Positions 3,845 through 51,714 of a DNA stretch of 64,000 bases are shown here, in pieces. Position 1 is the first letter of the stretch, and each line of letters begins with the position of its first letter. A model generated the notes under the pieces. The model ran no database searches. It saw only the letters and a list, made by a program, of their open reading frames with translations, and was not told where the DNA came from. Position numbers and translations under genes: made by a program. The DNA lies in contig WQYD01000003.1 in assembly GCA_009781445.1 (NCBI GenBank), positions 2,464 to 66,463 of the forward strand, written 5' to 3'. The DNA is from Bacillota bacterium (GTDB lineage: Bacteria; Bacillota; Clostridia; Christensenellales; DTU072).

Positions 3845-4699
3845 ATGAGTTATCAAATTGAACTTGTGTGTAAAATCGGCTCTATGGCACTTATCAATAA
3901 GGCTTACGGCGATGTGGATTATAACATTATCGCAAGGCTTTCGCGTGAATTAAAACCGGGGTATGTTTTGGTTACTTCGGGCGCAACCGAAATCGGGCGG
4001 ATTGATTATTTCAAACGGAACGGCAAAGAACTTGAGGGCGGTTGCAAGGAAGATATTAAAACCGATTATGCCTCTCAAGGGCAAATTGTGCTAATGGAAA
4101 CTTACAGAAGATTTATGAATTCTTCCTATTCCTTGCGCCAATTTTTGGTGGAACACCAACATTTTAATGACGAAAAGAAGCGCGAACACCTTAAAAACGC
4201 ATTGCTTCGTTGCCCTCTCGCCAACGCTGTGCCGATAATTAATTATAACGATCCTGTGAGTGATGAGGAAAACCGCAAACTTGAAATCCGCGCCCTGCGT
4301 GAAAAGCACAGCGGAAAAGCAGTGGCGGAATGCGTGGATAATGACGAAACCGCCTCTGAAATAGCCTGCCTTTTAAAGCCTAAGAACTTAATAATCTTCA
4401 CAGGGGTAGACGGAATTTTTACAAATGTAAACGATCCCGATTCATTAGTGAAAGAAATTTCGGCAAAAACCGCAAGCGAAACGGTGGAAAAAATTAACTA
4501 CTACCAAACCTTTTGCTCAGGCGCAAGCCGTGAGGGCGCAAACGGCGCAGGCATGAAACTGGAATTTATTAAGCAAGCGGTAATAAACGGCACAATCGTG
4601 TTTGTGGCGAACAGCAAATATTCTATTTCGGAAATCTTAAGCGGTGCTAAACCGTGTACGAAGATATTTATCAGCGCACAGCGCACAGTGAAGGAATGA
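3845..4699 (+). CDS. Amino-acid kinase family protein (glutamate-5-kinase-like)
   Basis: KIGSMALIN...VLVTSGATEIGR resembles the aspartate/glutamate/uridylate kinase fold. I prefer the ATG at 3845 over the TTG at 3797. The last residues (SAQRTVKE) and the stop codon lie inside repeat 4672-4804. Confidence 0.45.
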   Translation: MSYQIELVCKIGSMALINKAYGDVDYNIIARLSRELKPGYVLVTSGATEIGRIDYFKRNGKELEGGCKEDIKTDYASQGQIVLMETYRRFMNSSYSLRQFLVEHQHFNDEKKREHLKNALLRCPLANAVPIINYNDPVSDEENRKLEIRALREKHSGKAVAECVDNDETASEIACLLKPKNLIIFTGVDGIFTNVNDPDSLVKEISAKTASETVEKINYYQTFCSGASREGANGAGMKLEFIKQAVINGTIVFVANSKYSISEILSGAKPCTKIFISAQRTVKE

Positions 4700-4804
4700 T
4701 TTATAAGATATTTGATCCACGCCTGTTGCCTATTGCCTAATCAATAATGAGATTTAGAATCCACCATTGTGCGCTGTGCGCTGTGCGCTGTGCGTTGTGC
4801 GCTG
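4672..4804. repeat. Family-1 heptamer-array palindromic element
   Basis: (CAGCGCA)x2.5 - agtgaaggaatga - TTGCCTA-type array - core aataatgagatttagaatccacc - (TGTGCGC)x5. The closest copy is 44863-45015 in the opposite orientation. Confidence 0.9.
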
Positions 4805-6867: not shown

Positions 6868-8886
6868 ATGAAGAAGTTTTTTAAAGTTACCACATTGTTA
6901 TTAGTTCTTGTGTTTGCAGGCACGCTTATTTTAACGGCTTGCAATGACGGAAATCCGAATAGTGCTATAAGCGATGACGATTACACGCTTACTATCAAAG
7001 GCTATTTAGATGACGGCAAAGATCTTGTAATCAAAAAGAGTGTTATCAAAGAGTTTTATGCAGAAAACCCCGATAAGCGCGCACCCGAAGACGGCGAACG
7101 CGTGGCAGGAATCCGCACCCACAAGGTAGACGGAAAGGACGAACTTATCACTTATGAGGTAAGCGGGGTTTATCTTGACGATATTTTGGCACTTTACGGC
7201 GAAAAAACCGCGTCTGACTTTGATGTTATGACGGTTATTTCCTTAGATGACGGCTATGAGAATATTTTAAAGCCCGACATTTTTGATACAACCAAGGGTG
7301 GCGTTAAAATGATTATTGCCCTATTTTATGAGGGTGAAGAATTAACGCAAGAATCCCAATCGGGCGCACTTCGTGCAGTTTTCCCCACAAAGGCTAACAA
7401 CGCTTGGGCAAAGCACCTTTGTGAAATAAGGTTTGGCGAAACCGCCCCTATGCAAGACGCAACCACCACTGCTTACTTTATGGAAACGCTAACGGACTTC
7501 GTGGATACCTTCTCAAAAGGTAACGCTTGGTACAGCGGTGTAAGCATTTCCGCACTTCTTGACGCAGGAATTCTTGCAGATAATGAAGATCTTTATATGT
7601 TCATTACAGGGTTTGACGAAGAAGAAGATTACCTCGTGGTAAAGAATTATCTTAATTACGCAAGCGCATTTTTAACTGATAAAATTTCTTTAACGGGCGA
7701 AAACGGGCAGTATAACGCACTTGCAAAAAGCCCTGTGTTTGACGGCGCGGATTATCTTAACGCATTAAAAATCAGCAACACAGCTTTCTTAACCCTTGGC
7801 AAAACCGCACTTGTTTCTTTTGCACAGCTTGCAGAACGCCACGCAAACGCACAAGGCGATTTAAAAGTTTCAGACATTTTAACCGAACTCAATATGCCTA
7901 AAACAGGCTTAGTTAATTACGAAGTTAAAGATACTAACGGTGAAATGGCGGTGCTTACCGCAGACATTTTCAACTCGGCAACTATTAAATCTGAGGGCGG
8001 TAATTTCGTACTTACCCACGCAAACGGCACGCTTAATATAGCTTCGTTTGTTTGTAAAGAATTTTCATTTTTGTTGGATATTCTTGACGGAAACGGTGAA
8101 TTGCTTCGCACAATAACCACCGCAGATTTAAATAAGCTTAAAGGTACAGTTCTGACGGTAACAAGTGGCGGTGGCGCAGTAACAGAATACCTCGGCTATG
8201 ATTTGGGGCAAGTTTTAACAACTGTTGGCGTGAGAGGCACATTTACAAGCATAACCGTAATAGAAAATGACGGTGGCGAATGGGGCAGAGATATTACCAC
8301 GCTTAACGGCGCGTTTATATCTGTGGGCATTGTAAATGCCAATAACGAACTAACAACGGACGCAAACGGCCCGCGTTATATAGGTGGCTTAAATGTGGGT
8401 GGCAGTAGCACCCGTTCAAGAACGGCTAAAATCCGCTTAGAGGGCTTTGAACCTGCACCCCTACCAATCTATTTTGACGACATTGAGGTTAATATTGAAA
8501 TCGTGCATGACGGAAATTTGCTATTCACTATAAAGAATGAACATTTTGCGGGAATAACCCCAACAGTTCTTATTGCCACCGATAACAACGACCGCCATTA
8601 TTTTTGCTACAGCATTGAGGCAATTTTGGCAAAGGCGAATGTGGACATTAGCGCGCTTGACTTTAACCGCATTGTTGCAAACGGCAAAACCTCACAGGGC
8701 GACCAAAACCAAGATAGGACTTACACCGCTTCGTCTTTGGCAAACACATATATCTCAGTGGCTTTTGGTAGCAATGCTTCAAATATAACCACCGATAGAG
8801 TAAGGTTCTTTATCTATGACCATGAGAAAAACCAAATCGGAACATTCTCACAGTTTACTTACAGGCTTAACCTTGTAACTATTTAA
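6868..8886 (+). CDS. Large extracytoplasmic lipoprotein (hypothetical)
   Basis: Lipobox LILTAC. 672 aa with several internally similar domains. One segment (GALRAVFPTKANNAWAKHLCEIRF) resembles the SUOX-fold Moco-domain C-terminal motif. Confidence 0.55.
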   Translation: MKKFFKVTTLLLVLVFAGTLILTACNDGNPNSAISDDDYTLTIKGYLDDGKDLVIKKSVIKEFYAENPDKRAPEDGERVAGIRTHKVDGKDELITYEVSGVYLDDILALYGEKTASDFDVMTVISLDDGYENILKPDIFDTTKGGVKMIIALFYEGEELTQESQSGALRAVFPTKANNAWAKHLCEIRFGETAPMQDATTTAYFMETLTDFVDTFSKGNAWYSGVSISALLDAGILADNEDLYMFITGFDEEEDYLVVKNYLNYASAFLTDKISLTGENGQYNALAKSPVFDGADYLNALKISNTAFLTLGKTALVSFAQLAERHANAQGDLKVSDILTELNMPKTGLVNYEVKDTNGEMAVLTADIFNSATIKSEGGNFVLTHANGTLNIASFVCKEFSFLLDILDGNGELLRTITTADLNKLKGTVLTVTSGGGAVTEYLGYDLGQVLTTVGVRGTFTSITVIENDGGEWGRDITTLNGAFISVGIVNANNELTTDANGPRYIGGLNVGGSSTRSRTAKIRLEGFEPAPLPIYFDDIEVNIEIVHDGNLLFTIKNEHFAGITPTVLIATDNNDRHYFCYSIEAILAKANVDISALDFNRIVANGKTSQGDQNQDRTYTASSLANTYISVAFGSNASNITTDRVRFFIYDHEKNQIGTFSQFTYRLNLVTI

Positions 8887-8892: not shown

Positions 8893-9747
8893 ATGAAAAA
8901 ACAACGGTTTTTGCAAGCGTTTAGCGCGTATGATTTGATTTTAATCGCGATGCTTACCGCGCTTGCCGTTGCTTTTAAAGTTGTAGTAAAAATGCTTATA
9001 GGACTCATTGCCACACCCCTCGGAATACCGGGGGGTGCTTTGGCAGGCGGATTTTATATGCTTTGGATTCCGCTTACCGTGGCAATAGTGGGAAAGCGCG
9101 GTTCGGCTTTTTTAATGACATTTGTGCAATGCCTTGTGATAATAATCACCGCCATGCCGGGTAGCCACGGTATTTGGACATTTGCCACATACCTGCCACC
9201 TGCTATTTTGGCGGAAGTGGTTATGCTACGCAGAACGCAGGCAAAGCCTGCGAGAGACGAGAGACGAGAGACGAGAGACGAGATAAGGAATGATAACAAT
9301 ATAATTACGAATGACGACTTACGACTTACGAATGATAGAGGTATCAATGAAGATTTCGCAAATCAAAATTCACCACCTCTCGTCTCTCGTCTCTCGTCTC
9401 TCGTCTCTAATCCCTCACAATACACAGTTCTTCACTTCATATTCGCCTGCATTCTTGCAAACCTTGCGGGGACATTCGGAAGTAACCTGCTATTCTTCCG
9501 CCTAGGGTTTGTGCCGTTGTTTTTTGCAATGTCGGCGGGTGCGTTTTCGGGCGCAATGGGCGGTGTGCTTGGGTATTTGGTTTATAAACTTGTGGCAAAA
9601 TCAGGCATTTTTACTGCACACGCAACGCAGTATAAAAATTATAACGAAGAATCGCCAAGTGAATTCTGTGCGCCGAAAGGTGAAACGCCGTGGGAAGAAA
9701 TGAGTCAGCGCACAGCGCATGAAGATATGAAGACGCTACGCTTGTGA
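8893..9747 (+). CDS. Putative ECF-transporter substrate-capture (S) component, carrying an in-frame repeat insertion
   Basis: Polytopic membrane protein (DLILIAMLTALAVAFKVV...) next to ECF A/T genes. Residues encoded by 9253-9408 come from a palindromic element. The C-terminal tail runs into repeat 9705-9958. Confidence 0.45.
   Translation: MKKQRFLQAFSAYDLILIAMLTALAVAFKVVVKMLIGLIATPLGIPGGALAGGFYMLWIPLTVAIVGKRGSAFLMTFVQCLVIIITAMPGSHGIWTFATYLPPAILAEVVMLRRTQAKPARDERRETRDEIRNDNNIITNDDLRLTNDRGINEDFANQNSPPLVSRLSSLVSNPSQYTVLHFIFACILANLAGTFGSNLLFFRLGFVPLFFAMSAGAFSGAMGGVLGYLVYKLVAKSGIFTAHATQYKNYNEESPSEFCAPKGETPWEEMSQRTAHEDMKTLRL
9253..9408. repeat. Family-1 element inserted in frame in a CDS
   Basis: Perfect 30-bp inverted arms, (GAGACGA)x4 at 9253-9282 and (TCGTCTC)x4 at 9379-9408, flank a centre with an ACGACTT array. 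Near-identical copy at 12556-12708. Confidence 0.9.
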
Positions 9748-9958
9748 AGTGCGCCTTTGGCGCGTGAAGACGCTACGCTTGTGAAGACGGCTTCGCCTTA
9801 TTATGGATAATTATATAAACATTCCGCCACGAAAGCAAAGCAACACTTCACAAGTGAACGATAGACGAACGGCTTCACAAGCGTAGCGTCTTCACAAGGC
9901 GAAGCCGTCTTCACTAAACTTCCACCACTATGCCCGTAGCCCAAACACCTATGCCCTA
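9705..9958. repeat. Family-2 element (GTGAAGAC-word type) with GCGCACA and CTATGCC array remnants at its ends
   Basis: Left arm gtgaagacgctacgcttgtgaagacggcttcgcctt is complementary to right arm aaggcgaagccgtcttcacaagcgtagcgtcttcac. The centre is ...cattcc...gcaaagcaaca. Confidence 0.85.
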
Positions 9959-11366: not shown

Positions 11367-11920
11367 AAAAACCGATTTCAAAAAATGCGATAATCGCCAT
11401 AGTTCTTATCTTCGTTCTCGCCGTGGCATTCGGGGTGGGGCTTTATTTGATTCTTGATTTTAATAAGGAATTTAAAGAACTTTACGAAAGCGAAAAAATC
11501 CGCATAATATCCAAAGATTTTGTGAAAGATTTTTCTTTTGACGAACTTAAAGAATTAGCAACGCCCAAAACCTTTACCGCAACTTACAAGCCAAACCAAC
11601 GCTTGCCGATAACGCGTGAGTACACGGGCTTTTGCCTTTTGGATATTTTTTCAGCACTTGATATTGAACTAAGCAAAAGTAAGGGCGTTTCATTCATGCC
11701 GTCTGACGGGCGCGAAACGGTTTATAATATAAACGACATACTAACCCCAAACAATGTGTTTATTGCTTTTAAGTGGGACGGAAAGGCTTTCCCCAAAGGC
11801 AATGCGGGCATTTCGCCGTATCCAGACGAAAACGGCGGGCCTTTTGTGGTTATCCGTGCCAAAGATTTAGTAAGCACGAACAGAGTAAAGTGGCTTGTGC
11901 AAATTGAGGTTTTATTTTAA
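11363..11920 (+). CDS. Membrane-anchored protein with SUOX-fold (Moco-domain-like) module
   Basis: N-terminal TM. The C-terminal GGPFVVIRAKDLVSTNRVKWLVQIEV resembles the G.P.R..vP......VKW...IEV motif of YedY/sulfite-oxidase-type domains. ATGA overlap with the upstream gene. Confidence 0.45.
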   Translation: MKKPISKNAIIAIVLIFVLAVAFGVGLYLILDFNKEFKELYESEKIRIISKDFVKDFSFDELKELATPKTFTATYKPNQRLPITREYTGFCLLDIFSALDIELSKSKGVSFMPSDGRETVYNINDILTPNNVFIAFKWDGKAFPKGNAGISPYPDENGGPFVVIRAKDLVSTNRVKWLVQIEVLF

Positions 11921-13350
11921 TGGAAACCGTGCTTGAAATTAAAAATTTAACCTTATCTTACGGCGAAAGGATTTTGTGTGAAAACCTTAATTTTAGCGTG
12001 AACGCAGGCGAAATTGTGGGGGTAAGGGGCGGTAACGGCACAGGAAAATCCACCCTGATAAAGCGGATTTCCGCACTTATGCCCGCAAATTTAAACAGTG
12101 AAGGCAGTGTGCTTTTGTACGGTGCGGAAACGCTTGATTTAAACATTAAGGATAGGTGTACCGCCATTGCCACGATTTTCCAAGAACCCGAAGCACAGCT
12201 TTTTTCCTCTTTCGTGGAAGACGAACTTTCCTTTGCAAACGAAAACCTGCGTGTTCAGCGTGAAGAGATAAGAAAAAGGATAAACGCCGTTTCAGAACTT
12301 ACGGGCATTAGCCATTTAACTGATAGCAAATCCGAAAAGCTATCAGGCGGTGAAAAACAGCTTGTGGCAATAGCCTCTGCTATTTCTTCTTATCCGCGCG
12401 TAATCCTCGCAGACGAAATCACCGCACGGCTTGATTTAGAAGCCCGCACAAGAATAAGAACCCTCTTAAAAGATTTTGCCAAAGCAGGCGGTGCGGTTAT
12501 ATTCGTTCACCACACGGAAGAAGACGGGGGGGTTTGTGATAGGGTTATTGAAATTAGAGACGAGAGACGAGAGACGAGAGACGAGATAAGGAATAATAAT
12601 ATAATTACGAATGACGACTTACGACTTACGAATGATAGAGGTATCAATAATGATTCTATAAATCAAAACTCACCACCTCTCGTCTCTCGTCTCTCGTCTC
12701 TCGTCTCTAATCCCCAACAAACAATCGTCCTCAACAACCTTTCTTTCTCATACCTCAAAACTAAAGCCCTGATAAGCAATTTAAGCATGAGTTTTGAAAG
12801 CGGTAAGTGCTATCTTATTACAGGCAAAAACGGTGCAGGGAAAACTACTCTCGGCAAACTTATTTTGGGGCTTTTAAAGCCTCAAAGCGGAAGTGTGGAA
12901 ATCGGCGGTGAGTGCGTGGCTAAAATGCGGATAGGCAGTGTGGCAAAGAAGATAGGTTATGTGTTTCAGAACCCTGATTTGCAGTTTTTCACAAATTCCG
13001 TTGGGGAAGAATGTGAGTTTAGTTTTAAACTTACAAGCGCATTAACCGATAGTGTAAAAGAAAGAATCAATGATTGTTTAGTTAAGTTTGGGCTACAAGA
13101 CTTTAGAGAACGGAATCCCTTAACGCTGTCTACAGGCGAAAAGCAAAGGCTTGCCCTTGCCATAACTTCTTTAAGCGGTGTTAGTTTTTTATTGCTTGAC
13201 GAACCCACTTCTTCTCTTGATAATGAAGCTAAAAACTTTGTGGTTGATTATATTAAACGCTTTGTGGCGGACGGTGGTGGCGCGATAATTATCACGCATG
13301 ACAGCACGCTTTTAAGCCACTTGCCAGAGGGGGTAATTTATGAAATTTGA
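11920..13350 (+). CDS. ECF/ABC transporter ATPase, fused duplicated NBDs (EcfA-EcfA'), with in-frame repeat insertion in the linker
   Basis: Two Walker A sites (GGNGTGKST, GKNGAGKTT), two signatures (LSGGEKQ, LSTGEKQ) and Walker B motifs (ILADE, LLLDEP). TAATG overlap with the upstream gene. Confidence 0.85.
   Translation: METVLEIKNLTLSYGERILCENLNFSVNAGEIVGVRGGNGTGKSTLIKRISALMPANLNSEGSVLLYGAETLDLNIKDRCTAIATIFQEPEAQLFSSFVEDELSFANENLRVQREEIRKRINAVSELTGISHLTDSKSEKLSGGEKQLVAIASAISSYPRVILADEITARLDLEARTRIRTLLKDFAKAGGAVIFVHHTEEDGGVCDRVIEIRDERRETRDEIRNNNIITNDDLRLTNDRGINNDSINQNSPPLVSRLSSLVSNPQQTIVLNNLSFSYLKTKALISNLSMSFESGKCYLITGKNGAGKTTLGKLILGLLKPQSGSVEIGGECVAKMRIGSVAKKIGYVFQNPDLQFFTNSVGEECEFSFKLTSALTDSVKERINDCLVKFGLQDFRERNPLTLSTGEKQRLALAITSLSGVSFLLLDEPTSSLDNEAKNFVVDYIKRFVADGGGAIIITHDSTLLSHLPEGVIYEI
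12556..12708. repeat. Family-1 element inserted in frame between the two ATPase domains
   Basis: Same 30-bp GAGACGA/TCGTCTC arms as 9253-9408. It differs by one 3-nt indel and a few central substitutions, and is translated in the same frame. Confidence 0.9.
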
Positions 13351-15381: not shown

Positions 15382-16278
15382 ATGAGTTCTTTTTGGGGTA
15401 AAACTTTAAAGCTAAGTATGTTCGGCGAAGTTCAGGGCGACATTGTGGGCGGGACGCTTCATGATTTTCCTATAGATGTTGCTGTTAATTTGGATAGGAT
15501 TAAGCTGGGATTAAAGCTAAGGCAAGGTTCTGTAAATTTTGCAAGCGCGAACAGAGCGGAAGATAGGCCAGAAATTATTTCGGGCATTACCGCAGGCGTA
15601 ACTAACGGCGCGCCGATTACCGTGCAGTTTCAAAATAAACAAAAAACGGATAGGGTTTTCAGCAGTTATTTTTCACCGCGGTTTACGCTTCCAATGGTGT
15701 TTTTCGGAATGCTTGCGTCCGATTATCTTTCCAAACGCGGAATTGAGATTTGTTCTCACATTAAATCCGTGGGTTCAACTGAGGACGATTCTTTACCGCT
15801 TGTGTGCGATCAAGTTTTGTTTGACAGGCTGAACGCAAGCCCCCTTGCCACAATAAATCCAGACGCAAGAAAGCAAATGGTTTCATTGCTTGAAAGCGTG
15901 AAAGCCACAGGGGATTCCGTGGGCGGTACGGTGGAAACGGTGGTTGTGGGCATGCCCGATAGCCTAAAAAGCCCTCTTTTTGACAGCTTGGATGCGCGCA
16001 TTGCAAGGACGGTTTTTCCCATTCCGGGGGTGAAAGCGGTTAGCTTTGATAAACTTATAACCAATTCGGTTGTTATGACAACCACATTCCGCCCCACACC
16101 CACAGTTAAGCAACAGCAAGCCTTTTTGCAACAGCAGGCAGATTCTTCCAAGCACATGGATTTAGATTTAAAGCGCGAACATGTGCCGTGTGCAGGAATA
16201 AGAGGTTCTATTGTGGTAACCTCTGCCGTGGCACTTGCGGTTCTTGACGCACTTCTTGAAAGGGATTTAAGAGTATGA
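15382..16278 (+). CDS. Chorismate-synthase-like protein, short and divergent (possibly non-catalytic)
   Basis: Colinear similarity to AroC (FGEVQG vs FGESHG; GDSVGG; C-terminal ...VPCAGIRGSIVVTSAVALAVLDALL). It is only 298 aa and core motifs are replaced or missing. Confidence 0.5.
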   Translation: MSSFWGKTLKLSMFGEVQGDIVGGTLHDFPIDVAVNLDRIKLGLKLRQGSVNFASANRAEDRPEIISGITAGVTNGAPITVQFQNKQKTDRVFSSYFSPRFTLPMVFFGMLASDYLSKRGIEICSHIKSVGSTEDDSLPLVCDQVLFDRLNASPLATINPDARKQMVSLLESVKATGDSVGGTVETVVVGMPDSLKSPLFDSLDARIARTVFPIPGVKAVSFDKLITNSVVMTTTFRPTPTVKQQQAFLQQQADSSKHMDLDLKREHVPCAGIRGSIVVTSAVALAVLDALLERDLRV

Positions 16279-17030
16279 CGGGTTTACCCTATCTTGCACC
16301 AAAAACCGTGCTTATCACAGGCGCGGGCGGTGGCATAGGTGGCGAGATTGCAAGAGGCTTTGCAAAACTTGGCTACACCTTGGTGCTTGCCTATAACAAT
16401 TCCGAAAAGGAATGCCTTTCACTTTGCGAGGAACTTAAAGGGCAATGCTTAACTTATGCTTTTAAGGCGGATTTAAGCAACGGCGAGGGGATTGATTCCC
16501 TTGTGGATTTTTGCAAAAAAAGCATTGGCTATCCCGAAATTTTAATTAACAACGCAGGGATTTCCTTAATTGCGCCCTTAAATGAAGTTAGCGGTGAAGA
16601 TATTGATTTGCTTTTAAAAACGAACCTTTACGCACCCATAAAGCTAACCAAAGCATTTTATGATAAACTTCTTTTAAACGAACGGGGCTTGGGGCGGATT
16701 ATAAATATTTCAAGCGTGTGGGGAATATCGGGCGGTTCGTGCGAAGCCGTGTATTCCGCGTCCAAAGCTGGGCTTATCGGGTTTACGAAAGCACTTTCTA
16801 AAGAAATAGGGCTTTACGGCACAACGGTAAACTGCATTGCCCCCGGGTACATTGAAACCGCCATGAACAACGCGCTTTCGGAAAGCGAAAAAGAAAATAT
16901 AATTAAAGATATCCCCATGCGCCGTGCAGGCACACCAAAAGACATTGCCGATTCCGTACTATTCCTTGCAAGCGAAAATGCAAAGTATATCACGGGTGAG
17001 GTTTTGAGTGTGAGTGGGGGGTGGAAGTAG
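16275..17030 (+). CDS. SDR-family oxidoreductase (3-oxoacyl-ACP reductase FabG-like)
   Basis: TGAGGGIG, NNAG and YSASK motifs, 251 aa. ATGA overlap with the upstream gene. Confidence 0.8.
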   Translation: MTGLPYLAPKTVLITGAGGGIGGEIARGFAKLGYTLVLAYNNSEKECLSLCEELKGQCLTYAFKADLSNGEGIDSLVDFCKKSIGYPEILINNAGISLIAPLNEVSGEDIDLLLKTNLYAPIKLTKAFYDKLLLNERGLGRIINISSVWGISGGSCEAVYSASKAGLIGFTKALSKEIGLYGTTVNCIAPGYIETAMNNALSESEKENIIKDIPMRRAGTPKDIADSVLFLASENAKYITGEVLSVSGGWK

Positions 17031-17205
17031 GTATGATGTGCGCCTTTGGCGCATGATGATATGATGACGCTACGCTAATGATGGGCGGGCAAGCCCGCAT
17101 GAACTGATTTAATTTAGCATTCCTTAATGTTGCGAAGCAACACATCATAAGGCGAAGCCGACATCATACCATCATAAGCGAAGCGACATCATAAGCGCAC
17201 GCGCC
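17031..17205. repeat. Family-2 element (ATGATG-word type)
   Basis: Left half has ATGATG words separated by GC-rich mini-palindromes. The conserved centre is gggcgggcaagcccgcatgaactgatttaatttagcattccttaatgttgcgaagcaaca. The right half has CATCAT words. Confidence 0.85.
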
Positions 17206-17209: not shown

Positions 17210-17626
17210 CTATTCCCCAATAACCTTTATCAGCACCCTCTTTGGCCGTTTGCCGTCATATTCGCCGTAAAAAATTTGTTCCCAAGTGCCGAAGTCAAGT
17301 GCGCCGTTTGTGATTGCGCAAACTACTTCGCGCCCCATAATTTGGCGTTTTAGGTGTGCGTCTGCGTTATCCTCATAGCCGTTGTGCTTATATTGGCTGT
17401 GGGGTTTTTCGGGCGCAAGGGTTTCAAGCCATTTTTCAAAATCACTGTGAAGCCCGCTTTCGTTATCGTTTATAAAAACGCTTGCGGTTATATTCATTGC
17501 GTTCACAAGCACAAGCCCCTCTTTAACCGTGCTGTCATTAATCGCTTTTTGAATATCGGGGGTTATGTTCACATAACCTCTGCGTGAGGGAACTATCAGC
17601 GTTAATTCCTTTCTAAAAGATTTCAT
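17210..17626 (-). CDS. YjbQ/UPF0047 family protein (secondary thiamine-phosphate synthase-like)
   Basis: 138 aa with YVNITP...[14 protein letters not shown]...WL..L.P....Y.HN...DNADAHLK, typical of UPF0047. Confidence 0.8.
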
Positions 17627-24065: not shown

Positions 24066-27000
24066 TTATCTACGCGGTGAACGGCTGTAACGGCGTCCTG
24101 CGTGAGTTCTGTCTTTCCGCTTGAAAATCATGCTAAAGAAGAACAGAATGATTAACAGCGCAACACCGCCGATTGCAAACCCAAGAACATAATTCATATA
24201 TTCAGGCATTTCAGGAATCCTTAATCCGCCCACGCTTATGGAACGCACAGGGATATAATTCTCTGAATCAAAGTTCTCGCCTGCAAACAGCACCTCAACC
24301 ACAAACGCTTGGTTCGCGCTTATGCCGTTAAACACATTACTGCTTTGCCCCGGTGCAATTTCATTGCCCTCCAAATCAATCAATCTGTACACAGTGCCTG
24401 CGGGCGCATTGGTTGAAATAACATGGATAGTACCGTCCTCATTTCTTGTTACGCGGATATCAATATTAAATTCTGCCCTGTTTATAGTTAGAATTGCACC
24501 TATGCGGGCAACCTCAAAGCCGTAGTGCATTATAACAGCGGTAACATCGTATTGCCCTGCGTTCACTGGGAATGTGGTAAGCTGAAGCCCGTCCGACATT
24601 CTTATAAAGCTATAGTAAACCGATACGCCCTCTTGGGTAAAGCCTTGCGGTTGCGAACCGAAGTTCACTGCCCCTGGGGATTTCGCATTGCCGTCATACA
24701 CATATTCTGCGTCCCCCACAACTATTGCATTGAACGCATTGGCGGTAATCCTCAATGTGGTTGTTACCGTTTCAAATGTGTAGTTATCCGCCACTATTGA
24801 AAGCACGAATTCGTAATCACCAAGAAGCGTGGGGTTAGCTTCGCTTCCGTCTTTATAATAATTGGTAAACACTGTGATATTCTCAATATCGTTTCCGAAC
24901 AGCCCCAATATATTATATGTTGCTTGCTTAGCCGTACCGCTGTACTTGTGTTCAAGCCCTGCGATTGACGCGGTAAGAATTGCTTTAAAGATTTCAAAGT
25001 GGAACATGGTTTCGCCGTCATAGCTATAGTTTCCGAATTCGTCTTCAAAGCTGATAACCACAATGTATTTGCCTGCACCGCTTGCGTTTTCCACGATTTC
25101 ATAACCGCTTGGCACGCTGATTCCGAATGCGCCCCCGCTTGCGTTTTTGGGTGCGGGATTTCCTGCATTTACATATGTTTCACGCATGAAAATCATATGC
25201 GGAATAACCTTATAATCTTCGTCATACTGCGCAAATAAATTGATATTTGCGTTACCGCCGTTGAAGCTTAATTCGCTAATAAATTCTTCTTTTAGTTCCA
25301 CTTCGCGTGCGTGAATATCAAAGGAATAAGCGTAAACCTCAGTGAGTTCGCTGTTAGGATTTTGAAGCCTTACTTCCACGCTGTAAGTTCCCACATTACG
25401 CACTTGGCTTACTGGAATCTCATTTCCGTTTCTAAAGTACACGAATATTAAATCGCTTGAAATTTCCTCACCGCCGTCAAAAGCGAATGCTTTTAAGGTT
25501 TGCGTAAGCGCGCCGATTCCGTTTTCTTTTGCAGAGAACTGGAATGTTTTTCCGTTAGGCGCGTCCGATTCGTCAAGCACAGCTTCCGCCCTGCTTATCG
25601 TAAATGTTATGCCCGAAACCACGAAGGGGTGAATTGTGTTAGGCGAAGAAACGGTGAACGAAACAACGAAACTTCCTGCGCCCCTAATTTCCTTACCGCC
25701 TAAATCTGCCACGAACGATAAGCCGTGCGCATTGGGCAGGTTGGTTATTACAGGGGTTGTGATTTCGCCGTTGTACACCCTTGTGGCGTTATTGAATAAA
25801 AGTTCGGCTTGCAAGAAGTCCTCTGTGTACATTGCCCTTGCAATCACGAACACCGCGCTTAGCCCTGCGCTTGGCATTTCAAAATTAGAATCGTTTACCA
25901 CAAGGTTAACCACATATTCGCCTGCGTTCACGGGGACTACTTGGGTGCTTAAATCGTCTGAACGGAAGAAGTATTTTTCTAAATCCGCAACGGTGAAGCC
26001 GTTTCCTTGGGCATCTTTAAATAAGAAGGAAGCAATGTAATGCTTGCTTAGCCCGTCATACACCACCGCGTTTCCAGTTGCCTCTGCAAGGCTTAAAGCC
26101 CTTGGCATAACAACGATTTCAAAAGCGGTTTCGCTTAACTCATAATATGCGTTTGCCAAGGTGTTAAGGCTTAAGGTAACCAAGTACGCGCCTGCGTTCT
26201 TAACCGCGCTTGCAACCGCGCCGTTAAGCCTTATATCCTTATCAATAGTAAGGGCAACGCCACTTACAACAGGGAATGCTTGTGTGGAAGCCACCACTTC
26301 AAACTCTTCGCCAGAGTAAACGAACTGCGTGCTTGAAGTAAGTGAGGACTGAACCAAAATCTTGCTTATATAAATAAGGATACTAATATTAGCTGAGGAC
26401 GCGTCAAGCAACACATTACCGCCAACCACATTCACGGTTATGGCGTTTGCACCCACGCTAAGAGGTTGGTTGCTTATGAATCCGCCGAACTGCGTGCTTG
26501 CAATAAAGCTGTTCACAATGAATGCGTTATCAGGGAATAAGGAATTAAGAACTGAGTTAATCTCTTCCGTAATACCGCCTTGGAACGCGCTAAACGATGC
26601 AAGATATTCCACCCTTTCGCTTTCGCCGATTGAGATATCAATGCTAAAGTTTTCCACCGTAAACGGCGCAACATTTAGCGTGATTACATATGTTGCATTG
26701 TAATAAACACTGTTTTCATTGAGGCTTAAAGCGAACAAATCGTTATAGCTGTTCACGGTTAATTCATTAAGATTTACACCGCCGTTTGGTTGAAAGATTA
26801 GCCCCTTACTTGCAAAGTTAGCCTCTGCCCTGTTCACGGCAAATGCTCTGCCAAGTTCGTCAATATCATTTATATCAAGGGTATCCGTGCTAACGCTTTC
26901 CACGGTGTAATCACTTAAGGAATAAAGTTTTGAAAGCTCAATTTCCGCAAGCACATTAGCACGGCGCATTGTAAGCGTTACGGATAAATCCGCCACCTCA

Positions 27001-30000
27001 TAGTTAGAAGCCAAGCCGTTTAACATTGCGTAAGGGTTATTATCAAAATCGTTTTCCTTATTGAAATCAATTCTGAATTCATAGCCCACACCGCTGATAA
27101 ATTGAAGCTGTGTAACCGAAAGCGTGATTAAACCAAGTGCCTCAGAGGGCTTAACGAAATCACTTGCATTAGCATGAAGAACATATGCGGAAGCACTTGA
27201 GAAATCATTTCCGCCTGCTGTGTAATTGATTACCGCACCGCTGTTAACCGCGCCACCGCCAAAGAAGTTTATGGAAACAGGCAGGTTCTTTTTTGTAACC
27301 TCAAACACATATTGGGGAACTGCCGAAGCCACCACATAGTTCACGCTTGCAAAGCCTGCCGAATTGGCTACATATGCAAGGGTGTAAGAATCTGCATTAA
27401 GATATTCGTCATTAAGCGGAACGGAAACACCGAAGCCGTTTCTTAAAGTAAGCCCAAGCCTTATTAGGCGGTTATCCGTTTCACCCACCACAAGCTGTTC
27501 GCCGAACAAATTAAGCGCGTTGATTTCGGCTATCGTCATGCTTTCAAAGTCAAGATCCACCGAACTTGCGCGCATACTTCCGTACTCGTTTTGAAGGTTC
27601 GCAAGCCTGCTTAAGTTAAGCGTGAGTTGCCTCGGGCGGATTTGCACCACAAGCCTATTGCCGTTTGCAAGAAGCAAATAGCTTCCGATTGCCTCAATGT
27701 TATCTATATCATAATTCCTTTGCGCGCTTAAATAATTTATGCTTGCAAAGTAGTCGCCCACATCACCAAGAGTTCCCGCGCCTATTCTCTCAAGATTCAC
27801 TTCCACCGTGCTTCTAACTTCTGCACCAGCGGGAAGGTTCGTAACATTTGCGCCACCGTTAAACACGCTGAAATCATTTAACGCGCCAAGTTCGTCATAG
27901 GTAAGGGCGAATGTTCCGCTGTAATTTATGCTTAGAAGCAAGCGCAGAATCTCAATTGGGAAACTGCCGATATCAAGCGCAAAATTAAAGTTTTGGCTTT
28001 GGTTTGCGCCTGCTTGAAGCGACCAGAAATAGTTGCCTGCGTTCACTGCCTGCACGCCGTTTTCGTCCGAAGCCGTAACGGTAACGCCTGCAAAATACCC
28101 TGCCACATAAGTGCGCAAGTTGCCCTCAACTATATTTCCGTTTAAGTATACTTCATATGAAAGTGCGGTTAAAAGCCTTGTGATTACTGCGCCTGTGTAG
28201 TTCGCGCTGTTAGAGGTTGAACCTATAGCAATGTCTATTGTAATCGCTTCAATTACATATGTTAACACCACATTGCCGAAGCTATAATTGGCTACAGTTT
28301 CGTCACTTAAATTAACCGTGTAAATGCCTGCGTTTCTAAAGCCCACAGCGGTTATATTATCACCCGCGGGATTCTTAAATTGATACGCGCCTTGCAACAC
28401 ATTGTATATACCTGCGCTGTCCTTTGAATTATCCCATGCGGTAACGCCAAGCATTTCATAATCATTAAGCACGATATATCCGCTTGCGTCAAACGCACGG
28501 CTGAATGCTGTTTTGCTGAACGATACAGCGCGCCTTGTGATTGAGAGTGCGCCGTTCACAAACGAAATATTATAGTTATCCGAAGTGAAACCGCCTATGC
28601 TGATTACATATGAATCACCCACCGCACTCTGTTCGTTTGCGCTAAGGATTTGGATATTTAGAGTACCGCCTAAGTCTTGATAAGTGTCCTCACCAAGTAA
28701 CGAATCGCCGATTGAAGTTCTGAAAATTACATTGCTAATGCTTAAAGAAGGATTAGCTTCACCGTACACACGGCTTATGTTTTTGGCTATAACTTGAAGC
28801 GAAGCAGGGGTTATTATTTTTGTTTCTGTAAGCCCCGAAACCGCAAGCTGATAGTTATCATTGCTTGGTGCGTTAAAGCCCGTTACGGTTAATGTGTGCG
28901 TTCCCACATTCCTAAAATCATTTTGTTCTTGCGTAACAAAGGAAACAACTTCGCCGTACGCAGCGGCTAAAGGAAGGGCAACAGGGTTAAATTTTACACC
29001 CGAATAAACCGCCGTTTCAAAACCGCTGAACGAAACGGTAAGAGTGAATTTGGTAACGGTGAGCGTACCGCCCACAAATGCAATATCATAGTTTGGTGAA
29101 GAAACACCGTCCACGATAATCTCATATTCCGCCACATTTAAATGCCCCGTTTCGGCAAGCCTTGCGTTAAGCGTGCCACTTAGAACAGAGGCATTTTCGC
29201 CCTGTGCAAACGGTGAGAATCCATATGAAAAGCTTGGCGTTCCGCCGTAAACCATGGCGATGTTATCTGCCCTTACGGTTAATGCCATGGGGGCAATGTT
29301 CCATGTTACTGAAAGATCAAAAACACTGATTTCATATAGGTTTGTGGTTTCCGCACTTATGGTTGTGGTGTGCGTTCCTGCGTTTCTTGCGCTTGCATTA
29401 ACTAATTGAATTATATCGCCGTTAACGGTTGCACCGCTTATTGAAACAGTCTTATCTTCGTTGCTGTAAATTGCGTTTTGCGGTAGTAGCCAAGTAACAT
29501 TTAGGTTTCGTTTATTTACAGTTATGGTTGAACCTGAAAACAGAATGTCATAATTATCTGAAGTCAGCCCGCTTACCGTAACAGGATATGTGCCGGGTAC
29601 GGAACGCGCGTCAGCCACGGTGGAAATAACTAATTTACTGTTAGTTGCCGTTTCCACAGATTCTATTGTTTGCCCCCCAACCAATCCGCTAACGCTATAT
29701 TGCAGTACGGGGTTAGGATTGCCGTACTGTCTGCTACCGGCAGGATTGGCTTGAATTGATAGGCTTGCCCTGTTGATTACATATGAAATTTCGTCCACGG
29801 AAGGAATTTCGTAATTATTGCGATCCGATAAATCAATAACTTTTGCAGTGTATGTTCCTGCGTTTATTGCACTTCCGCCCGAAACGGTGGTGGTGATTGT
29901 TTCGCCGTTTGCAGGGTTGGTAACAGTGGCGGTAACGCTAACCGGCCCACCGATATAAGTAAGCCCTGTATGCCCGTTCCATTGAAGCCCTACCACGCGT

Positions 30001-32327
30001 TTGGTAATTGTGATTGTGCCTGTGGGGAAAGAGATATCATAGTTGTTAGACGAGAATCCGCTTGGGGTAACCACGCGCTGAGAACCTGCCACGGTGGTTG
30101 TGGTGGCATCGTGTGCATAGCTTATTGAACCGCTGAGGACACTAACCGTTTCGCCGTTCACAAAACCGCTTGCGGTGTAGCCAAGCATGCTTGCATTAAA
30201 ACTGCCGTAATCAGTGGTTACATTGTTTGCCCTTATCGTGAGAGGCGCAGGGAAGATTGACCATGTTTCAGAGGTGTTACCCATAACCACATTGTACCTT
30301 GTGAGGGTGGTTTGGATTATGGAAGCGGTGTAACCCCCTGCGTTCGTTTCGGTGTTTCCCGAAAGCAAAATGCTATCACCGTTCACAAGGTTGGTGCTTG
30401 ACGCGGTAACCGTTTGAGGCACGCCTGTGTAAAGCGCGTAACCATTCCCCGGTTTGTGCCATGTAACGCTTATGCTTCTTCTTTCTATCGTGAGTTGCGC
30501 GTTGGTGGTTGAAATTTCATAGTTGCCCGAAGTGAGGGAATTAACCGTTATTGTGTAAGTCCCCGGTAAATCCGTAACAGTCGCATTTGTGGTTGCGCCG
30601 TGCGTTCCCCAACCGGTGAGAACCGTGCTTGCTTGTTCGCCGTTCACCAGCCCGGTAACCGTTAGGCTTGGGGCAGGGTTGGCGTCACCGTATTGGCGGG
30701 ATTGGTTTCCTGCCACCACTGAAAGCGTTGCCCTTGTTATGTTCCATGCTTGGGAAGAGTTAGAGGGTAACGCATAGTTAGAATTTTGAATAGTTGCCGA
30801 AGCGGTATAGCTTCCCACATTGGTTGCCTTAGTGTTAGCAAAACTTACCACGCTTGCTTGGCTTGCACCAAGTAAGCCCGACACGGTAGGTTCATGCGTT
30901 TGTTCCACACCCGAATAGGGGCGCGAACTGCTTGGCCACGAAAAAACTAAAGGCGCAGGGTTTATGGTGAACGCATAGTTTACCTCACCTATCGTGGTAC
31001 TGCTACCATTCCTCAGCACCGCCCGCAGTCGGTAACTGCCTGCATTTGTGGGGGCGGTAACACCTATGTTCGTGCCTGCCGAATTTTGGTAATACGGCGA
31101 GGTAGACCAAGCTACCCCTGTGGGCAGTCCCCCCCCGCTTGGCAAGGTTACAGTAGGCCCTTGCGCCGAACCGCTGAATGTGTACGAACTACCGCCCGAA
31201 ATTGTAAAAGATACGAAGTTTGCAGTAAGTGTGATTGCCCTGCCGTTATAGCTTACCTCACCTGCAATTGAGGGGGTTAGCGTGGGGCTTGCGTTGCTTA
31301 TATAGGTTGCACCTGTAATGTTTGCAGACCAATCTCTAAAGTAATAGTTAGCGTTAGGGCTTGCGGTGTTTGCAAGCATACCAGTAGTGCCGTTAGACGG
31401 AAGCGTAACGGCAAGGCTTGTTCTTGTAAGAGAACCGCCCGCACCGCCTGCCGCACCGTTAGTGGTGATGCCATAGGTGTGCGTTGAAGCGCTGTAAGTC
31501 CATGTAATTGTAACGCTATTTACAGTTAGATTCGCATAAACCCTCGCCCTGCTTCCGCCTGCTGAACCTGAGTTGCAGGTTGCGTGCTGATAGGATTGGT
31601 ATTCAAGGCGGATACCCGTCATGTTAGTTGCTGCGGCAAAGCTCGCAGTGTTGCTATTTCTTGCGCCGGTATTTGAGCCGGTAAAGGTGGTTGTGCCACG
31701 GCTTGTAACTGTGCCACTTACATTAGAGTATATTTCTGACCAGCCTTCGTATCTGCTCCCGCCACCAGTGCTTCCGCTTATAGAACCGCTCCATATGCCG
31801 TTTGTAACCACAGATATATTGGTAATCTTGCCACTAGATATTGCACGCAAAACATCCCCTGTAAATGTAATGTTATATTGGAATCTGAGCATTGCGTGCG
31901 CCCTTTTATCATTACCTGCGATAACCGCCTTGTAATCTGATTCCATATCCGCTGTCCAACCGCCTCTTACTGTGGAGTTTGACCAGCTTGCACCGGGAGT
32001 CCCGCCGGCATCTATATTCACCACATGGAGTGCGTTGCTACTTGGGGCTGCGTTGGGAATATTTGTGCTTCCGTTGTTGTTACCAGAACGGTTACCCGAA
32101 AGATCATGGTTCATACGGCGGTTATTATGGCTATTATTATTGTTATCCCTGCCGTTCCACCCAGGTAAAGCGGCATCTGCCGATTCAATAACTTCTCTAT
32201 CAAAAATTGCAGGGGCAAGCCGTCCAAGGCTGAACACCCCCATGGTAAATAACAGCGTAAAGCAAATAAACAGCCCTAAGCCAAGCAGTAAATATGCTGA
32301 TAATCTTCTTTTTGTGTTTGTTTTCAT
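24066..32327 (-). CDS. Giant cell-surface repeat protein (MBG-domain-like repeats), 2753 aa
   Basis: N-terminal signal/anchor and an Asn-rich segment. At least a dozen repeats carry YG..NP.L.....G.VNGE...L.G...GTY.I......S.NY.I.F..G.L.I. C-terminal TM (FAIGGVALLIILFFFSMIF) plus a basic tail; AGAGGTGA RBS. Confidence 0.85.
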   Translation of the reverse strand: MKTNTKRRLSAYLLLGLGLFICFTLLFTMGVFSLGRLAPAIFDREVIESADAALPGWNGRDNNNNSHNNRRMNHDLSGNRSGNNNGSTNIPNAAPSSNALHVVNIDAGGTPGASWSNSTVRGGWTADMESDYKAVIAGNDKRAHAMLRFQYNITFTGDVLRAISSGKITNISVVTNGIWSGSISGSTGGGSRYEGWSEIYSNVSGTVTSRGTTTFTGSNTGARNSNTASFAAATNMTGIRLEYQSYQHATCNSGSAGGSRARVYANLTVNSVTITWTYSASTHTYGITTNGAAGGAGGSLTRTSLAVTLPSNGTTGMLANTASPNANYYFRDWSANITGATYISNASPTLTPSIAGEVSYNGRAITLTANFVSFTISGGSSYTFSGSAQGPTVTLPSGGGLPTGVAWSTSPYYQNSAGTNIGVTAPTNAGSYRLRAVLRNGSSTTIGEVNYAFTINPAPLVFSWPSSSRPYSGVEQTHEPTVSGLLGASQASVVSFANTKATNVGSYTASATIQNSNYALPSNSSQAWNITRATLSVVAGNQSRQYGDANPAPSLTVTGLVNGEQASTVLTGWGTHGATTNATVTDLPGTYTITVNSLTSGNYEISTTNAQLTIERRSISVTWHKPGNGYALYTGVPQTVTASSTNLVNGDSILLSGNTETNAGGYTASIIQTTLTRYNVVMGNTSETWSIFPAPLTIRANNVTTDYGSFNASMLGYTASGFVNGETVSVLSGSISYAHDATTTTVAGSQRVVTPSGFSSNNYDISFPTGTITITKRVVGLQWNGHTGLTYIGGPVSVTATVTNPANGETITTTVSGGSAINAGTYTAKVIDLSDRNNYEIPSVDEISYVINRASLSIQANPAGSRQYGNPNPVLQYSVSGLVGGQTIESVETATNSKLVISTVADARSVPGTYPVTVSGLTSDNYDILFSGSTITVNKRNLNVTWLLPQNAIYSNEDKTVSISGATVNGDIIQLVNASARNAGTHTTTISAETTNLYEISVFDLSVTWNIAPMALTVRADNIAMVYGGTPSFSYGFSPFAQGENASVLSGTLNARLAETGHLNVAEYEIIVDGVSSPNYDIAFVGGTLTVTKFTLTVSFSGFETAVYSGVKFNPVALPLAAAYGEVVSFVTQEQNDFRNVGTHTLTVTGFNAPSNDNYQLAVSGLTETKIITPASLQVIAKNISRVYGEANPSLSISNVIFRTSIGDSLLGEDTYQDLGGTLNIQILSANEQSAVGDSYVISIGGFTSDNYNISFVNGALSITRRAVSFSKTAFSRAFDASGYIVLNDYEMLGVTAWDNSKDSAGIYNVLQGAYQFKNPAGDNITAVGFRNAGIYTVNLSDETVANYSFGNVVLTYVIEAITIDIAIGSTSNSANYTGAVITRLLTALSYEVYLNGNIVEGNLRTYVAGYFAGVTVTASDENGVQAVNAGNYFWSLQAGANQSQNFNFALDIGSFPIEILRLLLSINYSGTFALTYDELGALNDFSVFNGGANVTNLPAGAEVRSTVEVNLERIGAGTLGDVGDYFASINYLSAQRNYDIDNIEAIGSYLLLANGNRLVVQIRPRQLTLNLSRLANLQNEYGSMRASSVDLDFESMTIAEINALNLFGEQLVVGETDNRLIRLGLTLRNGFGVSVPLNDEYLNADSYTLAYVANSAGFASVNYVVASAVPQYVFEVTKKNLPVSINFFGGGAVNSGAVINYTAGGNDFSSASAYVLHANASDFVKPSEALGLITLSVTQLQFISGVGYEFRIDFNKENDFDNNPYAMLNGLASNYEVADLSVTLTMRRANVLAEIELSKLYSLSDYTVESVSTDTLDINDIDELGRAFAVNRAEANFASKGLIFQPNGGVNLNELTVNSYNDLFALSLNENSVYYNATYVITLNVAPFTVENFSIDISIGESERVEYLASFSAFQGGITEEINSVLNSLFPDNAFIVNSFIASTQFGGFISNQPLSVGANAITVNVVGGNVLLDASSANISILIYISKILVQSSLTSSTQFVYSGEEFEVVASTQAFPVVSGVALTIDKDIRLNGAVASAVKNAGAYLVTLSLNTLANAYYELSETAFEIVVMPRALSLAEATGNAVVYDGLSKHYIASFLFKDAQGNGFTVADLEKYFFRSDDLSTQVVPVNAGEYVVNLVVNDSNFEMPSAGLSAVFVIARAMYTEDFLQAELLFNNATRVYNGEITTPVITNLPNAHGLSFVADLGGKEIRGAGSFVVSFTVSSPNTIHPFVVSGITFTISRAEAVLDESDAPNGKTFQFSAKENGIGALTQTLKAFAFDGGEEISSDLIFVYFRNGNEIPVSQVRNVGTYSVEVRLQNPNSELTEVYAYSFDIHAREVELKEEFISELSFNGGNANINLFAQYDEDYKVIPHMIFMRETYVNAGNPAPKNASGGAFGISVPSGYEIVENASGAGKYIVVISFEDEFGNYSYDGETMFHFEIFKAILTASIAGLEHKYSGTAKQATYNILGLFGNDIENITVFTNYYKDGSEANPTLLGDYEFVLSIVADNYTFETVTTTLRITANAFNAIVVGDAEYVYDGNAKSPGAVNFGSQPQGFTQEGVSVYYSFIRMSDGLQLTTFPVNAGQYDVTAVIMHYGFEVARIGAILTINRAEFNIDIRVTRNEDGTIHVISTNAPAGTVYRLIDLEGNEIAPGQSSNVFNGISANQAFVVEVLFAGENFDSENYIPVRSISVGGLRIPEMPEYMNYVLGFAIGGVALLIILFFFSMIFKRKDRTHAGRRYSRSPRR

Positions 32328-51611: not shown

Positions 51612-51714
51612 TAATATTGCATTCTGCCGAAAGCAGAATGTAATTATTCATTGCGCATTTTGTTTTTATAATATATAATTATTTATAACACAAAATATGA
51701 AGTGAGGAATTTTT

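Follow-up and report, generated by a model that had tools for sequence, protein, structure and literature searches.

A two-armed word-and-hairpin DNA repeat in an uncultured Clostridia genome, a divergent relative of the Gut-1 motif

We analysed 64,000 nt of contig WQYD01000003.1 (the whole stretch is called the window below), which is ordinary chromosome from a housekeeping region of an uncultured Clostridia metagenome-assembled genome (MAG). The segment at 17031-17205 (copy A) belongs to a small intergenic DNA repeat, further copies of which stand at 51391-51612 (copy B) and 9706-9915 (copy C), all given on the plus strand. We refer to these three as family 2 and to the heptamer arrays of the same genome as family 1. 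Each family-2 arm is built of a word, RTGAWG (continuing as A), and of tiny GC hairpins, mostly d(GCGNAGC), in alternation, and the two arms are inverted about an AT-rich centre. From sequence comparison we conclude that family 2 is a divergent relative of the Gut-1 class (RF01706), although it is not a member by the Rfam criterion. With moderate confidence, we explain it as a lineage-specific, REP/BIME-like mosaic of non-coding palindromic DNA that is kept uniform by tandem duplication and template switching.

The left arm of copy A (17033-17083) carries ATGATG at 17033, 17053, 17061 and 17078, with GT ahead of the first word and with TGCGCCTTTGGCGC (17039-17052), AT and ACGCTACGCTA (17067-17077) as spacers; the reverse complement of ACGCTACGCTA contains GCGTAGC. 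The inner left hairpin (GGCGGGCAAGCCCGC, 17084-17098) has a 6-bp stem and is followed by ATGAAC. Beyond the AT-rich centre (ATGAACTGATTTAATTTAGCATTCCTTAATG, 17099-17129) lies the inner right hairpin (TTGCGAAGCAA, 17130-17140), a GCGAAGC mini-hairpin followed by CA, and then the right arm (17143-17205), which has CATCAT at 17143, 17162, 17170 and 17187, the spacers AAGGCGAAGCCGA, AC and AAGCGAAGCGA, and the terminus AAGCGCACGCGCC. This right arm amounts to 2.0 copies of a 25-nt unit at 92% identity. The window has 10 ATGATG and 8 CATCAT, of which copy A holds four each within its 175 nt. Across 5000 shuffles of the segment, at most one left and one right complementary hexamer appeared, compared with the four observed (0/5000). 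The sequence of copy A is the same base for base in the ENA and Logan assemblies, and that of copies B and C is the same in the ENA assembly.

Copies B and C repeat this grammar with another word. On its left, copy B has four GTGAAG/ATGAAG words plus ATGGAG and ATGAAC, and on its right three CTTCAC and two CTTCAT; its centre (51493-51523) is of the ATTTAGCATTCCTTCATGTT form and its inner left hairpin is CGCGGGCGCGCCCGC (51478-51492). Copy C opens with (CAGCGCA)2, followed by two ATGAAG and three GTGAAG alternating with hairpins, and its right arm has four CTTCAC. Its centre (ATTATGGATAATTATATAAACATTCCGCCACGAAAGCAAAGCAACA, 9800-9845) is unlike that of copies A and B, which have a 91-nt block in common at 87% identity, centre included. 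The parts shared by the centres of copies C and B are only CATTCC and GCAAAGCAACAC(TTCACAAGTGAACGA), that is GCAAAGCAACACTTCACAAGTGAACGA. ATGATG differs from ATGAAG by one base, altered in 8 of 8 words of copy A and in 0 of 19 words of copies B and C. ATGATG and CATCAT are absent from copies B and C, RTGAAG and CTTCAY are absent from copy A, and none of the three copies mixes word types. A word-agnostic search, for any six-mer repeated at a spacing of 8-30 nt, returned these three elements and no others from the window and about 10 kb of flank (~75 kb), so our data contain one word switch only.

The words are irregularly spaced (8, 17, 19, 20, 25 and 27 nt), and those with no hairpin between them lie 8 nt apart (ATGATGAT next to ATGATGAC; CATCATAC next to CATCATAA). 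Higher-order tandem duplications run through the arms, with periods of 17 and 19 nt in copy C and, by reading, a repeated 25-nt block (24/25 match) in the left arm of copy B; words within one arm are thus related by descent. A first-pass annotation had described four ATGATG in the left half of copy A and the complementary word CATCAT in the right half, interleaved with GC mini-hairpins, and had proposed a genuine second repeat family. Reading, counts and the shuffle test agree with the former, and the recurrence of the arm grammar in three copies with the latter. One of its supposed mini-hairpins, ACGCTACGCT, folds poorly in place and is better described as an (ACGCT)2 repeat whose opposite strand carries a GCGTAGC mini-hairpin. 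Further copies had been placed at 9705-9958 and 51393-51611, with a common centre and the words GTGAAG(AC)/CTTCAC. The architecture holds for both and the centre for the copy at 51391, but the copy at 9706 has a different centre and ends near 9915, and the words, although of RTGAAG/CTTCAY type, are on the left a mixture of GTGAAG and ATGAAG with ATGGAG and ATGAAC. The arms had also been said to have switched word together; they are indeed matched, uniform within each element and different between elements, but the difference comes to one substitution per word and one event.

Outside the window the family left few traces. Exact-pattern scans for the family-2 centre had no match in GTDB representative genomes or JGI metagenome contigs, neither of which includes the host organism. 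No scoring match was returned for a concatenated six-frame translation of the elements used as a protein query, or, probably owing to low-complexity filtering, for the peptide encoded by an in-frame repeat insertion. The PLSDB plasmids gave no blastn match to copy B or to one Gut-1 element, and a literature search by sequence string returned nothing relevant. Several simple identities were considered and rejected: a coding sequence (stops interrupt all long frames and no gene is called there), an intrinsic terminator (no T-run) and a CRISPR-like array (only 6-7 nt are conserved per unit, and palindromes that recur stand in place of ‘spacers’).

At Rfam thresholds, the molybdenum cofactor (Moco) riboswitch is the only family in the window and none falls on family-2 elements. 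In a permissive search, the Gut-1 covariance model has just two matches in the window, both on family-2 arms: the right arm of copy B (minus strand, 24.9 bits) and the left arm of copy C (20.3-22.3 bits), with none on copy A at E ≤ 10. These are sub-threshold matches, since the gathering threshold for RF01706 is 50 bits; at half of that value, family 2 falls outside Gut-1 as Rfam defines it. The first-pass annotation had named an Rfam match that explains the element as evidence against its proposal. What the search returns is a sub-threshold relative (22-25 bits vs 50) that names a class without explaining the element. Gut-1 itself is a 77-nt motif of three hairpins from human-gut metagenomes, rated likely RNA in its discovery paper (Weinberg et al. 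2010, PMC2864571). Its consensus, CAaUGAAAU-hairpin-GUGAA-AU-hairpin-GUGAAA-hairpin-UGAAAU, is a word-plus-hairpin grammar like that of family 2. Three hairpins are joined by an RUGAnAU linker, and family 2 alternates likewise, but with the word RTGAWG(A) and with some hairpins that are mere GCGNAGC mini-hairpins.

The likeness extends to a feature of Gut-1 that the accessible part of the discovery paper (PMC2864571) does not mention, namely a second arm and the matching of its words; our literature search for Gut-1 found no mention of the motif beyond that paper. In the flanks of the published seed alignment, most loci run on into an AT-rich centre (GGAUUUAUUUC, GGGUGGAUUUAAUUUCAU) and then into a second arm, made up of hairpins interleaved with the complementary word. 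Seven IMG/VR loci found by word pattern are genuine Gut-1 (50.8-77.5 bits), and all seven are two-armed, partly through selection, as the script that chose them required a second arm. A sequence-only profile of these seven loci places its two best window matches on family-2 arms: the left arm of copy C matches the left arm of the profile (E 0.046), and the right arm of copy B its right arm (E 0.11). The Gut-1 centre (TGAGCTGATTTATTTC, GGATTTAATTTCAT) also resembles the centre of copy A and the family-2 centre in general (ATGAACTGATTTAATTT, TGAACTGATTTAATTT). A two-armed layout around a GGATTTATTTC-like centre is found in copies A and B, where ATGAACTGATT(T/A)AATTT is followed by CATCAT or CTTCAC arms. 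The profile matches are collinear with the matching arms and the centres are similar, and we take family 2 to be related to Gut-1.

Word matching between arms is also seen in Gut-1. Sixteen two-armed seed loci carry the matched pairs GUGAAAU/AUUUCAC, GUGAUAU/AUAUCAC and AUGAAAU/AUUUCAU. All five loci with a U-majority at word position 5 on the left have an A-majority on the right, and 9 of the 11 with a left A-majority have a right U-majority; this variable position (A/U) is the one that separates ATGAAG from ATGATG. The seed loci group into few subfamilies, so that independent word switches number about three or four. Mixed words, which had been named beforehand as evidence against joint switching, occur in 0 of 3 window copies and in 2 of the 16 two-armed Gut-1 loci (BAAZ01000224 and BAAZ01000130), and a few other loci have a single odd word. 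Scans of IMG/VR for GTGATAT, ATGAAAT and TGAAGAC arrays each gave 120 mostly coding or low-complexity matches and no further two-armed element.

Some other features of Gut-1 loci were recorded along the way. Four of the seven IMG/VR loci adjoin tRNA genes, and Gut-1 elements often lie tens to a few hundred nucleotides from such genes (IMG/VR contigs L069, L124, L127 and L132), in L127 35 nt downstream of tRNA-Ser; no tRNA genes were found in the window. Several seed and IMG/VR loci start right after a similar terminator-like hairpin (GCACTTGC...GCAAGTGC) and T-run, which may belong to the element. Seed contig BAAZ01000130 carries the entire Gut-1 unit in tandem with a 240-nt period, and an (AUUUUCA)n heptamer array lies near seed locus BAAY01013587.

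So, do these elements act as RNA or as DNA? Single-strand folds beat those of shuffled sequences in all three copies (z -3.6 to -6.7), and plus and minus strands both fold well (-65.4/-70.2 kcal/mol for copy A, -82.6/-87.6 for copy B and -87.8/-94.0 for copy C). The mini-hairpin stems of the window copies are Watson-Crick only, with no wobble pairs, and the stems of 23 genuine Gut-1 loci comprise 549 Watson-Crick, 2 G·T and 4 A·C pairs (555 in total). A structured RNA family would normally accept some G·U on the strand that is transcribed. The loops have a polarity as well. On the strand that runs outward, 5' to 3' away from the centre (plus in right arms, minus in left arms), C-GNA-G occurs 13 times in family-2 arms (12 as exact GCGNAGC), and on the inward strand 0 times vs 1.4 expected. 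Among the 23 Gut-1 loci, left arms have 24 CTNCG and 0 CGNAG, and right arms 23 CGNAG and 6 CTNCG. GCGNAGC is the ‘mini-hairpin DNA’ motif, with melting temperatures of 76.5 C for d(GCGAAGC) and 39 C for r(GCGAAAGC) (PMC13037366). We favour a DNA-level explanation because the strands fold equally, G·U is nearly absent, the loops are dyad-symmetric and GCGNAGC is stable as DNA. The RNA compensatory covariation implied by the first-pass annotation is not supported, on these same grounds and on that of the tandem duplication of the words. In consensus scans, neither the long stem nor the ends of any copy gave a terminator-like site, and copies A and B contained nothing promoter-like. The matches inside the elements were at background level: two short-stem terminator-like ones (9781-9796 in copy C; 51556-51535 on the minus strand of copy B) and a weak promoter-like one at the right end of copy C (9891-9920).

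In the explanation we prefer, an arm would grow by tandem duplication of word-plus-hairpin blocks, which would leave its words uniform. The inverted arms would stay complementary through intramolecular template switching or hairpin-templated repair between them. Because all words are alike, the arms could pair in several registers, and one word change might then spread to every word. Template switching homogenises inverted-repeat arms and creates apparently compensatory changes (PMC8794818, PMC8604942). At the 3' ends of genes, the elements would multiply or be retained as selfish or nearly neutral DNA; if transcribed as part of a 3' untranslated region, they might at most provide a REP-like 3' structure that influences decay of the upstream mRNA.

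Several points weigh against this explanation. Template switching and gene conversion are processes we infer here and have not observed. The hairpin modules TGCGCCTTTGGCGC, ACGCTACGCT and AAGGCGAAGCCG are identical between copies A and C at 36 of 36 nt, while all 8 words differ. Simple duplication and drift do not predict such a pattern, which calls for an alternative: either fast word-specific homogenisation or independently recruited hairpin modules. None of the three copies is bordered by a target-site duplication or direct repeat such as a MITE would have, no transposase domain was found in any open reading frame (ORF) of the window or its flanks (~75 kb), and with three copies only, any mobility is putative. 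Moreover, the orientation relative to the upstream gene is the same in all three copies, which would fit an RNA role, and Gut-1 was rated a likely RNA by its discoverers on account of its covarying hairpins (NUM_COV 18; PMC2864571). Given this constant orientation and the discoverers' covariation call, an RNA role is possible.

In its strongest form, that role would be a structured RNA, either a Gut-1-like non-coding RNA or an element of the 3' untranslated region, in which the hairpins fold locally, the words of the two arms pair into a ladder of four-way junctions, and the joint word change is true compensatory evolution under selection for RNA folding. We regard this as doubtful, though several observations speak for it: the stability of the folds over shuffles, the position of all three copies directly after a stop codon and in sense with the upstream gene, the likely-RNA rating and covariation of Gut-1, the three matched word alleles across Gut-1 subfamilies, and the location of copy B between the prfB stop codon and a terminator-like hairpin, so that it is probably transcribed. 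Set against these are the minus strands, which fold equally or better, and the stem pairs, among which G·U (2/555) is no commoner than A·C. The loops are mirror images between arms (UUC/UAC vs GAA/GUA) where one favoured type on one strand would be expected of an RNA, and GCGNAGC is exceptionally stable as DNA, not as RNA. Many Gut-1 loci have a terminator-like hairpin and T-run immediately upstream, with no room for a promoter, mixed-word loci occur, and the Rfam model scores half of its threshold. Another explanation, for which the identical modules in copies A (ATGATG) and C (RTGAAG) speak, is a nested origin, in which plain inverted word arrays, like those of family 1, were later entered by mobile hairpin modules of 9-14 nt and GCGNAGC type. 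Word uniformity would then be ordinary for a tandem array, and identical hairpins among different words would be expected. Neighbouring hairpin-free words 8 nt apart resemble an uninterrupted array, family-1 composites display the starting state (complementary outer arrays of 3-4 different units), and copy C opens with family-1 heptamers. Small dispersed repeats inside the heptamer arrays of Nostoc have reportedly been proposed as insertions. However, no solitary hairpin module was found in the window's 51 heptamer arrays and no insertion polymorphism was observed, while words and hairpins have clearly been co-duplicated as blocks, so that the pattern is in part one of block duplication; we consider a nested origin unlikely.

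Equally unlikely, in our judgement, is that Gut-1-type elements, family 2 included, are single-stranded-DNA signals rather than RNAs, as a dyad of arrays that would show extraordinarily stable d(GCGNAGC) mini-hairpins, with a fixed word as spacer, on the outward-running strand of both sides. They could then be substrates of a single-strand-specific enzyme (a hairpin-recognising transposase or nuclease, or a primase or restart factor) that could write uniform words; the mini-hairpins of phage G4 and the RSF1010 ssi sites offer a likeness. We think it improbable that the words are cooperative protein-binding sites in direct and inverted arrays, with hairpins as spacers of a DNA or RNA loading site. 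The words are conserved and dyad-symmetrically arranged while the intervening hairpins vary, and the omega repressor of pSM19035 binds WATCACW heptads, which the Gut-1 right-arm word TATCAC(A/T) fits. But at least two word alleles within one genome, in addition to about a dozen family-1 heptamers, would need many proteins; the spacing of the words is irregular, and no candidate gene for a binding protein is linked to the elements. Least of all do we credit chance similarity or an assembly artefact. Repeats carry a general risk of mis-assembly, and one ENA assembly breaks near 51346-51350, but the assemblies agree on the copies as stated above, no shuffle in 5000 reproduced the arms, and unrelated public sequences (the Gut-1 seed alignment, IMG/VR contigs) follow the same grammar.

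The three copies have similar genomic placements: each begins at or within the stop codon of a co-oriented upstream gene and occupies the intergenic gap. Copy A fills a 179-nt gap between two convergent genes, an SDR reductase (YmfI/FabG-like; 16275-17030, plus strand), whose stop codon lies 2 nt before the copy, and a YjbQ family gene (17210-17626, minus strand), whose stop codon lies 4 nt past it. Copy B starts within the prfB stop codon, and beyond its end, at 51616-51644, stands a separate terminator-like hairpin. The closest prfB relatives beyond the host have 78% and 73% identity, and in these the DNA after prfB is unrelated and holds no such element. The left arm of copy C provides the last ~14 codons and the stop codon of ORF 8893-9747. 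At ~51346-51350, inside the 3' end of prfB and just ahead of copy B, one ENA contig of the same strain gives way to another; both match the window with 0 mismatches, and they either abut or share only ~5 nt.

Family 2 is embedded in a dense system of other mosaic repeats, in which heptamer arrays are combined with GGATT/AATCC junctions. The intergenic regions of the window hold 51 period-7 arrays of 13 heptamer types, arranged in 19 composite elements between 4672 and 63476 (for example 4672-4804, 32669-32833, 50016-50161 and 55856-56006). Every heptamer array adjoins a boundary motif, (A/G)TGNNGGAWT, and then one of a few tails; the reverse complement of one of these, CTAAATCTCATTATT, is the ‘family-1 core’. 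At least 12 of the 19 composites have outer arrays that complement each other, drawn from 3-4 different heptamers: (CAGCGCA)n...(TGCGCTG)n, (GAGACGA)n...(TCGTCTC)n, (TTCAGAA)n...(TTCTGAA)n and, approximately, (TAGGCCA)n...(CCCTATG)n. Matched-arm words that differ between elements are thus a general rule of the repeats of this genome and nothing special to family 2. The two families are linked in three ways, as had been proposed in part from the centre: the family-2 word RTGAAG (ATGAAG/GTGAAG) is that of the family-1 boundary motif (A/G)TGAAGGAWT; the first 14 nt of copy C are two CAGCGCA heptamers of family 1, the only heptamers in family 2; and the family-2 centre, in the copy B form, carries ATTTAG(C)ATTCCTTCATGTT, which matches the family-1 junction ATTTAG-ATTCCTTCATGTT at 50113-50128 (one base off the previously reported 50114-50129).

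Scans for the family-1 junction gave 3 single matches in unrelated taxa in the genome collection, about chance level, and 0 matches in IMG/VR. Among JGI metagenomes, three short contigs of one sample (Ga0123356) hold real family-1 elements and no family 2. These contigs (L015 840-1006, L014 1440-1490 and L018 3850-3960) come from a related organism that shares the family-1 junctions and heptamers; in L015, a unit of CCTGCAN heptamers plus AATAATGAGATTTAGAATCC stands three times in tandem, and the repeats reach the contig end. Within the window, a heptamer-type element of ~160-180 nt, (GAGACGA)4 ... (TTACGAC)n ... (CTCGTCT)4, lies in frame at 9251-9408 and 12556-12708, in ORF 8893-9747 and in an ABC protein (11920-13350) between its two ATPase domains. 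The two copies have a 128-nt block in common at 92% identity and recall Rickettsia palindromic elements. A third word-plus-hairpin repeat type, at 43474-43557 and 60145-60192 and also in L018 at ~4080-4176, alternates hairpins like CCACGGGTTTCACCCGTGG with GTTATGCACAT-like words and adjoins a family-1 junction. An AT-rich 17-nt unit, TTTTAAACCTATTTATG, repeated 2.9 times at 3684-3734 upstream of ORF 3797-4699, is apparently unrelated to the other repeat families. Other features of the window are a Moco/tungsten riboswitch (RF01055; 6762-6876, plus strand, 57.7 bits) upstream of ORF 6868-8886, itself faintly similar to Oxidored_molyb; a sub-threshold match to the Na+ riboswitch (DUF1646 motif, RF03071; 44655-44698, minus strand, 30.3 bits vs a gathering threshold of 40.5); and one ORF of 2753 aa (24066-32327, minus strand), with GC locally higher (0.50) around 30-32 kb.

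The Gut-1 grammar, REP-like mosaics and bacterial heptamer arrays are already known. What appears to be undescribed is that there is a second arm with matched word alleles, that GCGNAGC has a polarity, that G·U is absent, and that such a repeat is embedded in a heptamer-array repeat system of a Clostridia genome. Gut-1 has been in Rfam since 2010 as an orphan ‘RNA’ with human-gut metagenomes as its only source. The window supplies a divergent relative in assembled genome context, gives grounds for regarding the class as two-armed, its words co-varying and its mini-hairpins of DNA type, and ties it to a dense heptamer-array system, a kind of bacterial repeat of unexplained origin. Should the DNA-level explanation be true, such ‘covariation’ would be a by-product of palindrome maintenance, which would call for caution in RNA-motif discovery pipelines. 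Should these elements instead be single-stranded-DNA signals, the Rfam family would have to be reclassified and gut Clostridia would have a new kind of hairpin-array element.

How does family 2 compare with known repeats? BOX elements of Streptococcus pneumoniae are modular intergenic repeats of Firmicutes, with variable internal units and partly complementary ends that form a long stem-loop. Family 2 is likewise modular, intergenic, variable in unit number and foldable, but BOX modules are 45-59 nt long, do not alternate words with mini-hairpins and have no sequence similarity to it. TAACTGA tandem heptamer repeats and the related STRR are intergenic 7-nt arrays of cyanobacteria, Beggiatoaceae and Bacteroidetes (MacGregor 2015, PMC4679880). 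Like these, the window's 51 arrays are intergenic and built of 7-nt units; family 2 has boundary motifs in common with the window's arrays and may be a heptamer array invaded by mini-hairpins. Unlike STRR and TAACTGA repeats, it has periods of 17, 19 and 25 nt (17-27 range) in place of head-to-tail 7 nt, and its unit sequences differ. The window's arrays also stand in inverted pairs about conserved junctions, which is undescribed for the known heptamer repeats.

The REP, BIME and REPIN elements are short GC-rich extragenic palindromes that follow a short conserved word and form mosaic clusters with linkers, or inverted doublets, at gene 3' ends. Family 2 resembles them in being extragenic and multi-copy (three intergenic copies), with inverted arms able to form a long hairpin. 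It differs in having RTGAWG instead of the GTAG word, in much smaller hairpins (2-6 bp) that vary within one element, and in units that are direct within an arm where REP units alternate; no RAYT (Y1 transposase) was found in ~75 kb, and the host is a Clostridia MAG. REPINs have been proposed to work in the form of single-stranded DNA when they are mobilised (Bertels and Rainey 2011, PMC3116915). The closest comparison is with Gut-1. Its word is RUGAWAU rather than RTGAWG(A), and family 2 has neither the 5' AAATCC-loop-GGATTT hairpin nor the upstream terminator-like hairpin; the family-2 centre is longer and includes the family-1 junction motif. Nevertheless, in both a word (RUGAnAU in Gut-1) alternates with short, variable GC hairpins in two arms with the same GCGNAGC loop polarity, and both lie just downstream of a co-oriented gene.

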